18,747 bases of DNA, taken from UHGV virus genome UHGV-0070184. The stretch is one strand, 5' to 3'. The translations under genes and the position numbers were made by a program. Below, piece by piece: positions 15,370-17,003 of the stretch; the stretch's first letter is position 1; the number at the start of each line of letters is the position of its first letter. A model generated the notes under the pieces. That model was not told the DNA's origin, ran no database searches, and saw nothing but the letters and a program-made list of their open reading frames with translations. The DNA comes from a virus.

Positions 15370-15392
15370 AATTAATGTATAAGGAAATAAAT

Positions 15393-15578
15393 ATGTTTTA
15401 TAAATCTATACATATCCTACTTATTTGTTTATTTATTACTTTACCTATTACAAGTTTTGCAAAAAATTATCCATGTTCTGGTAAGAAAGGGGGAGTTTCA
15501 CATTGTACATCTGATGGGAAGTTCGTTTGCAATGATGGAACGCAAAGCAAGTCAAAGAAAATATGTTCTAAAAACTAA
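15393..15578 (+). CDS. small secreted Cys-rich protein (61 aa; predicted signal peptide plus about 38-aa basic mature peptide with 4 Cys)
   Basis: ATG 15393 with AGGA about 8 nt upstream; N-terminal hydrophobic stretch ending ..SFA, then [38 protein letters not shown]; very AT-rich; stop 11 nt before the KAP NTPase start. Confidence 0.5.
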
Positions 15579-15589
15579 GGTTGCTTCAT

Positions 15590-16921
15590 ATGAATAATGA
15601 TATGACTTTTGAAAACAGAGATGAGTATAATAGAAAAATCATTGCTGAAAAAATAATAAGCTTACTCGAGTCCCCCTTAAAAATATCCCCTATTGTTATC
15701 GATGGGGACTGGGGTACCGGTAAAACCGAATTTTCAAAAAAATTAGCGGCATTGATTGAAAAAAATGAATCTGGGCATAAAGTAGTATATATTGATGCAT
15801 TTACTGAAGATCATAATGATGCTCCCATACTTACTATAATGGCTGCAATAGTTGCATTATATCCAGAGAGTGAAAAGAAGGAATTAATATCAAAGGCATT
15901 ACCAGCATTGAGATTTGGACTTAAAACTGTACTCAAAGCTGGCGCTGGGTGGATTTTAAAACAAAATGCAGATGATATTGCGGATGAATTCGAAGATGCT
16001 ATTAAAGATGCGGCTAACTCAGCTATAGATGGTACTGTAGAAGCACTGCTTGATGATCATATTGAAGCAAAGAAACATTTGCTTGCTCTCAAGGAAGTAC
16101 TTGCTGAACTAACTAGCGAAAATAAAATAACAATTATCATTGACGAACTTGACCGTTGTGAACCAAGCTTTGCCATCTCTATCATCGAAAATATAAAACA
16201 TGTTTTTGACACTGAAAATCTTAACTTCTTGTTAGTTGCTAACATCTCACAATTGAAAGCATCAATAAATCATATTTACGGTGCAGGTGTTGACTCAGAA
16301 AGATATCTTGATAAATTTATAAAATTCACTTACAGCCTGCCAGTGACTTTCACTGAAAACAATTACGATAAAATTTTGGCTTCGAACTCTCATTTTAGAA
16401 TGCTATGTAACGAGTCTGAAAGACTAAAAGAAATTGGAGAAAGTAGTATTCATATAGTTCAAAAATTTATCGAACTAAAAGGCTTGTCGCTACGGGAAGT
16501 TGAAACCTTATCAAGATATCTAGAAATTTATCAAATTTTATCTCAAAATGAAATCAGCAATAAATTTATACCAGGCTATTGCTGTTATCGAACCCTTGCA
16601 GTAATTCTTTATTCGTTTGGTCGTGAACTGGCCCTTAACTACGTAGAAGATAAAATAGATGCACAATTAATAATCAATTTCTTCGGTGTTAATAGACTCC
16701 CATATCAGACAGATCAATATAACATCAACATCTACTATTATGCATTATTTGGTATAACTTATAAATATATGCCAGAAGGTTCTCCTTTACTTCCTTCTGA
16801 AAACGATGAAAAAAACAGATGGGCTGAAATAAGTGATTATCATATTTTAAAAGGAAATGCAGGTGTAGAAGACCCTGTTAGAATATTCAAAAACACCTTA
16901 AAAGTTTTCTTGCTCCAATGA
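15590..16921 (+). CDS. KAP-family P-loop NTPase, 443 aa
   Basis: Walker A GDWGTGKT (G-W-G-GKT form) and Walker B IIIDELDRCEP (DxLDR form), both as I recall for the KAP family; hydrophobic segments lie between them; strongly AT-rich. Start taken as ATG 15590 (the track start at 15581 is TTG). Confidence 0.8.
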   Translation: MNNDMTFENRDEYNRKIIAEKIISLLESPLKISPIVIDGDWGTGKTEFSKKLAALIEKNESGHKVVYIDAFTEDHNDAPILTIMAAIVALYPESEKKELISKALPALRFGLKTVLKAGAGWILKQNADDIADEFEDAIKDAANSAIDGTVEALLDDHIEAKKHLLALKEVLAELTSENKITIIIDELDRCEPSFAISIIENIKHVFDTENLNFLLVANISQLKASINHIYGAGVDSERYLDKFIKFTYSLPVTFTENNYDKILASNSHFRMLCNESERLKEIGESSIHIVQKFIELKGLSLREVETLSRYLEIYQILSQNEISNKFIPGYCCYRTLAVILYSFGRELALNYVEDKIDAQLIINFFGVNRLPYQTDQYNINIYYYALFGITYKYMPEGSPLLPSENDEKNRWAEISDYHILKGNAGVEDPVRIFKNTLKVFLLQ

Positions 16922-16978
16922 AATGTTTGATTGAAGATCTTTAAACATTGACCACTGTTCAAACATACAGTTAAATTT

Positions 16979-17003
16979 AGTCCTCAGACATGAGGACTTT
17001 TTT
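16979..17003 (+). terminator. rho-independent terminator after the KAP gene; stem contains the int Shine-Dalgarno
   Basis: agtcctca (16979-16986) / tgaggact (16991-16998) 8-bp stem, gaca loop, then TTTTT ending 1 nt before the int ATG at 17004. Confidence 0.7.

Follow-up and report, generated by a model that had tools for sequence, protein, structure and literature searches.

Introduction

PifA, the product of a single gene of the F plasmid, excludes phage T7, and T7 gp1.2 and gp10 have been reported as its triggers. Its KAP ATPase core has no transmembrane (TM) helices, and exclusion is accompanied by membrane depolarisation and leakage of nucleotides (PMC13001434). EF_KAP of Enterococcus is a validated single-gene defence of the KAP type in which the Walker B motif is required (PMC13552941), and Reve comes from a P4 hotspot; pFD425, the plasmid taken to carry Reve, brought plaquing of Drexlerviridae down by up to ~1e-6. 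As EF_KAP and Reve have been validated, single-gene KAP-type defence works in principle. The PADLOC database also carries the PDC set, 145 single- or multi-gene candidates drawn from genes that lie inside loci for BREX, DISARM and type I restriction–modification (R-M) (bioRxiv 10.1101/2024.01.29.577857).

Here we compare with these systems a KAP-family gene of UHGV-0070184, a stretch of 18,747 nt that was analysed whole (the window, to which coordinates refer unless another locus is named) and that is a 186-like (Peduoviridae) prophage of Escherichia coli integrated next to rcdA; no close DNA match was found in the phage collection. In phage 186 the immunity repressor gene cI abuts the integrase gene int with nothing between them and both lie in the pL lysogenic operon. 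In the window two genes stand at this place, a small ydcA-family gene followed by the KAP gene (Table 1). An initial annotation, made from the letters alone, had taken the pair for a horizontally acquired two-gene cassette, plausibly a defence module. The locus is best regarded as defence cargo of a fairly ordinary kind for a prophage, without any novel system of two parts, and we think it probable that it consists of two independent morons, a default ydcA and a single-gene KAP insertion that acts alone as an anti-phage gene.

Results

The KAP protein is a member of the candidate family PDC-S20

The KAP protein matched Pfam KAP_NTPase (PF07693) at 2.5e-51 (175.1 bits, cutoff 20), with residues 16–315 aligned over profile positions 2–290 of 293. 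The signatures on which the family had first been recognised, GDWGTGKT and IIIDELDRC, fit the Walker A pattern GxxGxGK[ST] and the Walker B pattern hhhhD[DE]LDR, and across 29 homologues G39, W41, G42, G44 and K45 of the former and D185, E186, L187, D188, R189 and C190 of the latter are invariant. The profile search that had been proposed for this reading frame also returned an end-to-end match in PADLOC, to PDC-S20 model PDLC04956 (7.1e-171, residues 1–441 of 443 over profile positions 1–447 of 450). Judged by this match the protein is a full-length member of the single-gene candidate family PDC-S20, so that the gene, at first not recognised as part of a named defence system, had already been catalogued as a candidate. 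The family gave 1,665 matches among the scored candidates, with a typical length of ~440–450 amino acids (aa), and its invariant residues include an N-terminal RDE motif, both Walker motifs, YLDKF and LSLRE. As befits a family of single genes its neighbours vary: they may be ydcA, none, a gene for a 160-aa protein, lambdoid Q and holin genes, or hsdS and hsdR. Specificity subunits of type I R-M systems make up 6 of the 94 open reading frames (ORFs) flanking 47 distant KAP loci, the same kind of embedding by which the PDC set was delimited. The window protein shares the ~445-aa size and single-gene organisation of PDC-S20, but it lies in a prophage cI–int slot and not in an R-M or BREX operon.

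Comparison with the named systems gave likenesses of architecture. A KAP ATPase core without TM helices in a single mobile-element gene is found in PifA and likewise here (PMC13001434), and with EF_KAP and Reve the window protein shares a KAP P-loop domain plus an uncharacterised region, again in a single mobile-element gene, although EF_KAP has two modelled TM helices and the window protein none (PMC13552941). Membership of PifA, QatABCD and RADAR was rejected, and homology to EF_KAP and Reve does not reach past the Walker motifs. The PADLOC PifA model aligns residues 8–252 to positions 14–255 of 720 (3e-16), that is only its N-terminal ~255 positions, and the C-terminal parts are unrelated. 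QatA similarity (PADLOC 2.9e-10; NCBIfam 42.4 bits, cutoff 600) covers the KAP core only and lies far under the cutoff, the flanking genes are ydcA and int, and there are no QatB, QatC or QatD genes, which excludes QatABCD. For RADAR, the solved RdrA chains are ~785–850 residues long and no RdrB deaminase gene is adjacent, and BrxC of BREX is much larger than KAP, which has no BREX partner genes near it. The Reve sequence given in the preprint's supplement (586 aa; UnknownSys7, equated with pFD425 and Reve from its place in the order before UnknownSys8) gave a blastp E value of 0.003 over 14 aa and a profile score of 7.8 bits, with the Walker motifs alone in common, and on that sequence identity with Reve was rejected.

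Only the KAP gene has been inserted

As first described, both genes follow cI closely on the same strand, with 23 nt between cI and ydcA and 11 nt between ydcA and the KAP ATG. They had been read as a cassette inserted in one piece, and this was not upheld. When the window was aligned by blastn with a prophage that has ydcA but no KAP (L098), cI and ydcA of the window (14704–15576) matched cI and ydcA of that prophage at 71% and positions 16912–18091 matched its int region at 93%, with 1,335 bp between the breakpoints (15576/16912) in place of a 107-bp spacer. On these alignments the inserted unit is the KAP gene only, and ydcA is the default resident of the slot.

A census of 5,426 complete E. 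coli genomes agrees with this. With a 441-nt probe joining the end of cI, ydcA and the start of int (coverage at least 80%), the cI–ydcA–int arrangement was found in 590 genomes, BL21 included, as the commonest arrangement of the slot, and it was present in all three loci sampled (3/3). The window int with ~90 bp upstream occurs at ~92% identity in 1,134 of the genomes, and the window-type ydcA+KAP allele in nine. Horizontal acquisition of accessory cargo was borne out, as was the AT-richness of the block, which has a G+C content (GC) of 0.325 against a window median of 0.486 and is the lowest-GC part of the window (rank 2 of 344 sliding windows); by gene the values are 0.30 for ydcA, 0.33 for KAP, 0.42 for cI and 0.48 for int.

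There are also KAP genes that have no ydcA beside them. The slot reads cI–KAP–int, with a 31-bp gap, in E. coli E9 and in the locus that encodes P0011 (54% identity), and upstream of a Yersinia KAP gene (50%) an unrelated gene for a 160-aa protein takes the place of ydcA. This gene was considered as an analogue of ydcA and rejected, as its product has no signal-peptide-like N-terminus and appears unrelated; in the Yersinia rohdei prophage (L087/L088, 5494–5976) its C-terminus has weak similarity to PADLOC PDC-S48 (1e-4). Lambdoid prophages of Citrobacter, Cronobacter and E. coli carry KAP alone, on the opposite strand, between the antiterminator gene Q and the holin gene. A tblastn search of 80 distant KAP loci, ranging from those of Serratia to those of Chloroflexota, found a ydcA-like ORF in none (best E 0.55), and ydcA was rejected as a conserved partner of KAP on this result. 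Within the nearer KAP clade the pair is kept in the window, in Enterobacter ludwigii (80%), in the NC101 type (71%) and in Buttiauxella (68%). Comparison of the NC101-type locus (L182) with the ydcA-only L098 gave 86% for cI, 87% for ydcA and 100% for Int, and comparison of the window with the NC101 type gave 63% for cI, 67% for ydcA and 71% for KAP. By these identities the ydcA allele tracks the type of cI and not the KAP clade, and for this reason linkage with gain and loss of KAP fits better than an obligate partnership.

The cI–int junction is a defence hotspot

Known hotspots of P2-like phages (old/tin, fun/Z and the cI–int interval of Vibrio K139-like phages, the last described by Rousset et al.) have conserved flanks around exchangeable low-GC cargo. 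The same is seen here, with the difference that the lineage is the 186-like one of E. coli, at the rcdA site, and that ydcA is the default occupant. In the literature searched, the cI–int junction of the rcdA-site lineage is covered only as a minor 'integrase–primase' hotspot, an interval in which 8% of the defence systems of P2 phages are located (bioRxiv 10.64898/2026.02.27.708500).

The slot was surveyed in 80 sister contigs from IMG/VR whose Int is 98–100% identical to that of the window, and at least nine cargo states were found, validated systems among them. ydcA alone occupies 40 contigs, PD-Lambda-1 (558 aa, DUF4041 + T5orf172, PADLOC 7e-120) 18, Old (589 aa, PADLOC 9e-235) six, a CI-like protein followed by a distant 505-aa KAP (PDC-S20 model PDLC04959, 7e-78) four, coiled-coil proteins of 324 or 351 aa four, ydcA + KAP three, PDC-M11A/B with one extra gene two, PDC-M18A/B two and a 488-aa protein without assignment one; the contigs may be redundant, so that these counts are not counts of independent events. 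All alternative cargo has a GC of 0.31–0.37. Old is the classical exclusion gene of P2, and a validated membrane-anchored DUF4041 protein matches the architecture of PD-Lambda-1, a name that is absent from the text describing it (Vassallo et al., PMC9519451). By its contents the cI–int junction is a prophage defence hotspot, and a defence role for KAP is plausible because the same slot holds Old and PD-Lambda-1 in sister prophages. This part of the initial annotation's proposal thus stands, and the pairing of the two genes in one module does not.

Some of the other cargo deserves a short description. The CI-like protein that precedes the distant KAP (307 aa; L111 2448–3371, also in L116, L147 and L149) has, on reading its sequence, what appears to be an N-terminal helix–turn–helix region present twice, and as the KAP gene follows at L111 3397–4914 a second repressor-like gene travels with this cargo. 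The coiled-coil proteins seem, again on reading, to have hydrophobic stretches, their C-terminal halves looking hydrophobic enough for membrane segments. For three cargo types (L136 3945–4919, L107 and L128 3445–4911) Pfam and PADLOC gave no match, and because of their location the unmatched 324-, 351- and 488-aa proteins are unexplored defence candidates.

Structure and divergence of the KAP protein

The NTPase had been thought to be membrane-associated, with hydrophobic segments between Walker A and B, and neither expectation held. The highest 19-residue Kyte–Doolittle value is 1.10 for the whole protein and 0.94, only mildly hydrophobic, between the Walker motifs (the usual TM threshold is ~1.6), and neither a TM segment nor a signal peptide is predicted. 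In the AlphaFold2 (AF2) model (pLDDT 80, pTM 0.73) an AAA+-type core is interrupted by a hairpin insert at residues 93–174 and followed by an all-alpha C-terminal half; the insert, a low-confidence part of the model, consists of two amphipathic helices (93–129 and 131–174), with pLDDT below 50 at residues 111–154. A membrane-embedded NTPase was rejected on the hydropathy and on this soluble helical hairpin. Many KAP proteins, though not all, have TM helices linked to the P-loop domain; their lack here leaves membership of the KAP family unaffected, because PifA is without them too (PMC13001434). The nearest solved folds are those of the defence ATPases RdrA and BrxC, at 8–16% sequence identity, and a search of the PDB with the KAP family profile gave no relative at the sequence level.

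Divergence is concentrated at the C-terminus. Mean identity to the window protein is 60–66% over residues 1–255, 39% over 256–330 and 24% over 331–443, and in relatives at 80–83% overall the core is 92–94% identical and the C-terminus 65–68%. We propose residues 331–443 as a candidate specificity or sensor domain. Diverged KAP alleles on near-identical prophage backbones, with most of the variation in the C-terminal third, offer natural material for work on effector-less KAP ATPases.

The ydcA-family peptide

The small gene is, by its profile matches, a member of the YdcA family. Its product scored 4.8e-25 (87.1 bits) against NCBIfam PRK10040 (NF007463) and 4.5e-26 against phrog_6000, RefSeq labels the same gene 'YdcA family protein' and a homologue carries PF27300. 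As the score lies just below the equivalog cutoff of 93 bits, we regard the gene as a phage-borne paralogue and not as ydcA of K-12 itself. The features first noted in the product, a signal-like N-terminus and a basic peptide with four cysteines, were confirmed, but the start was moved from 15375 (67 aa) to the ATG at 15393 (61 aa), which the RefSeq annotation and an AAGGAA ribosome-binding site favour. The N-terminus is strongly hydrophobic (Kyte–Doolittle 19-aa maximum 2.09) and is likely to be a signal peptide encoded by 15393–15461, with a predicted cleavage site at SFA|K; the mature peptide would have 38 aa, four cysteines and a net charge of ~+6. The same plan, a signal peptide and a four-cysteine basic mature peptide with the motif PCSGKKGG...HC...GKF.C.DG, is found in E. 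coli YdcA/PRK10040 (PF27300).

In prophages of five genera (Escherichia, Enterobacter, Buttiauxella, Haemophilus as HP2, and Moraxella as a phage) the mature motif PCSGKKGG(V/I)(S/A)HC.S.GKF(V/I)C.DG..S.SK..C is invariant and the signal peptide variable, and the invariance points to a peptide under strong purifying selection that is exported and probably held by two disulfide bonds. The peptide is probably Sec-exported, disulfide-rich and basic. Haemophilus phage HP2 (NC_003315) has no KAP and carries a 60-aa YdcA-like ORF directly after cI; the Moraxella phages carry theirs among tail genes. Its place in the lysogenic operon, common to two distant P2-like branches, suggests that the peptide is probably a lysogenic-conversion factor acting at the envelope. 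Such genes, with their near-invariant mature peptide, stand in a lysogenic operon in ~11% of complete E. coli genomes (BL21 is one), and the family is of interest apart from KAP. The ORF in HP2 is unannotated in its record (locus L096, 2920–3102, + strand) and starts at the cI stop codon; downstream are orf1(S), whose 254-aa product has a signal-peptide-like N-terminus and the Pfam domain tRNA_anti-like, and then int.

Layout of the region and the hairpin before int

The features of the region are collected in Table 1; cI, to which RefSeq gives the label 'phage repressor protein CI', is the first gene of the cargo-carrying lysogenic operon.

Table 1. Features of the cI–int region of the window.
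Feature	Position	Strand	Basis
cI, 186-type CI immunity repressor	14806–15369	+	Pfam Phage_CI_repr 3e-33, Phage_CI_C 6e-29
ydcA-family gene, 61-aa precursor	15393–15578	+	NCBIfam PRK10040, phrog_6000, RefSeq name
Insertion relative to cI–ydcA–int prophages, 1,335 bp	15577–16911	+	blastn breakpoints
KAP-family P-loop NTPase, 443 aa, PDC-S20 member	15590–16921	+	Pfam KAP_NTPase, PADLOC
Walker A GDWGTGKT, residues 39–46	15704–15727	+	Sequence reading
Helical hairpin insert, residues ~93–174	15866–16111	+	AF2 model
Walker B IIIDELDRC, residues 182–190	16133–16159	+	Sequence reading
Fast-evolving all-alpha C-terminal region, residues 331–443	16580–16918	+	Homologue identity, AF2
Hairpin (8 bp, 4-nt loop) and T-run, abutting int ATG	16979–17003	+	Terminator scan, RNA fold
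int, tyrosine integrase, right flank of cargo slot	17004–18056	+	Pfam Int_N, Phage_integrase

The strong terminator that had been noted before int is there, as a hairpin with a T-run, and a terminator scan of 14400–17300 found no other such site. It is, by sequence comparison, a conserved int-proximal element of the backbone lying outside the KAP insert, because homology to KAP-less relatives resumes at 16912 and because the hairpin is kept in every cargo state among the 80 sister loci (40 nt upstream of int examined). Its 3' arm contains the Shine–Dalgarno-like GAGGA of int, and it may attenuate read-through from pL and also occlude translation of int. The stem shows compensatory changes (GCCCTC/GAGGGC, GTCCTCA/TGAGGAC and GCTCTC/GGAGGGC).

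Discussion

In the explanation that we think probable, ydcA and KAP would be read together with cI from pL, the promoter of the lysogenic operon, and hence be expressed in the lysogen, co-transcription being probable because the genes stand too close for a promoter or terminator to fit between them. The KAP protein would be soluble. Its conserved core is of AAA+/STAND-like type, with the ring-forming RdrA and BrxC as the nearest relatives of solved structure, and its fast-evolving C-terminal helical domain would sense a component of the infecting phage. ATP binding or hydrolysis would then lead to oligomerisation or to remodelling of a target, by which infection would be blocked or aborted, PifA being the nearest functional analogue for an abortive outcome. 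From its family and its genomic setting an anti-phage function of KAP is likely, and the slot gives location-based support for PDC-S20 as a real anti-phage gene.

Several points weigh against this explanation. PDC-S20 is not mentioned in the literature searched and no report of a tested member was found; the PDC systems were released untested (bioRxiv 10.1101/2024.01.29.577857) and a later paper terms them unvalidated. None of the validated KAP-type systems is a close relative, and the PifA and QatA models match the ATPase core only. The C-terminal domain gave no informative structural match and no recognisable effector fold, and no effector domain can be recognised in KAP. The case for co-transcription from pL is built on gene spacing and the precedent of phage 186, and the redundancy possible among the sister contigs bears on the weight of the slot census. 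Finally, ydcA lies 11–13 nt from KAP in all four sampled alleles of the clade (68–100% aa identity, three genera) and is displaced from the slot by other cargo types, so there may be some functional interplay of the two within this clade.

These last observations are also what speaks for a genuine two-gene system, in which a secreted cysteine-rich peptide would serve as periplasmic sensor, effector or exclusion factor for a membrane-associated KAP motor: the genes are nearly contiguous on one strand, the pair is retained throughout the sampled clade, and ydcA is absent from every other type of slot cargo. We nevertheless hold such a system to be very improbable. ydcA alone is the commonest state (590 genomes; 40 of the 80 contigs), KAP is found without it in this slot, in prophages of the lambdoid type and at each of the 80 distant loci, HP2 has the ydcA-like ORF after cI with no KAP, the ydcA allele follows cI and not the KAP clade, and PADLOC defines PDC-S20 as a single-gene candidate; moreover KAP has neither a predicted TM segment nor a signal peptide by which cytoplasm and periplasm might be linked. 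That KAP is not anti-phage at all and has some other part to play for prophage or host, for instance as a stabiliser resembling an addiction system or a toxin, as a regulator of lysogeny or induction, or as a selfish passenger without phenotype, would suit a family with no experimental validation and no recognisable effector domain, whose AAA+/ORC/DnaA-like fold is also that of replication and remodelling factors. We judge this unlikely, since KAP is present on some and missing from others of a set of near-identical backbones (as in L182 and L098), shares its slot in turn with Old and PD-Lambda-1, is met again at classical moron sites in prophages of unrelated types and within type I R-M operons, and has a C-terminus that evolves as fast as expected of arms-race sensors, and since phage 186 does without a gene at this position.

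There is some chance, though we would not put it high, that the YdcA-like peptide is the slot's main exclusion or lysogenic-conversion factor, directed at adsorption, DNA entry, competitors or the host, and that KAP is secondary. The near-invariance of the mature peptide over five genera beside a variable signal peptide, the place directly after cI in two distant P2-like branches and the presence in ~11% of complete E. coli genomes all favour it, but the peptide has no PADLOC match, its gene gives way to each of the other defence cargoes of the slot and is therefore dispensable, and nothing informative on the function of the E. coli YdcA family was found in the literature searched. This possibility is compatible with two independent morons and does not exclude them. 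A wider proposal, which we regard as speculative and rather doubtful, is that PDC-S20 is a widespread class of effector-less, soluble KAP immunity proteins, each working as a single polypeptide by a mechanism new to the field, and that YdcA-like peptides are a conserved family for envelope exclusion or host interaction, made from the lysogenic operon in P2-like phages of hosts as far apart as E. coli and Haemophilus. Proteins of such a class could act by ATP-driven sequestration or remodelling of a phage assembly or by nucleotide depletion, with the hypervariable helical domain at the C-terminus determining specificity, and ydcA and KAP might cooperate within the present KAP clade.

Other variable sites of the prophage

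The prophages also vary at a second place, between int and the rcdA-adjacent attachment site. Its contents are a DUF2971 protein, a Panacea-domain protein with a hypothetical protein, or an 89-aa ORF (L099 4310–5062, L100 4199–5427 and L086 8503–8772, respectively), and it agrees with the minor 'integrase–att' hotspot of the 2026 preprint (bioRxiv 10.64898/2026.02.27.708500). Elsewhere in the window, positions 6476–7759 (− strand) encode a 427-aa AAA-type ATPase with a weak match to Pfam AAA_22 and a match to the PADLOC candidate PDC-S59 (3e-36). The gene occupies the classical P2 hotspot between the portal gene (5398–6435) and gpA (9361–11775), in a stretch whose GC (~0.39) is the second lowest in the window, so that the prophage may carry two single-gene candidate ATPases, KAP and the PDC-S59-like protein. 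Between the PDC-S59-like gene and gpA there are an acidic 111-aa ORF without a match (8246–8581, + strand) and a gene for a DinI-like protein (8775–9080, − strand; Pfam 1.3e-22).

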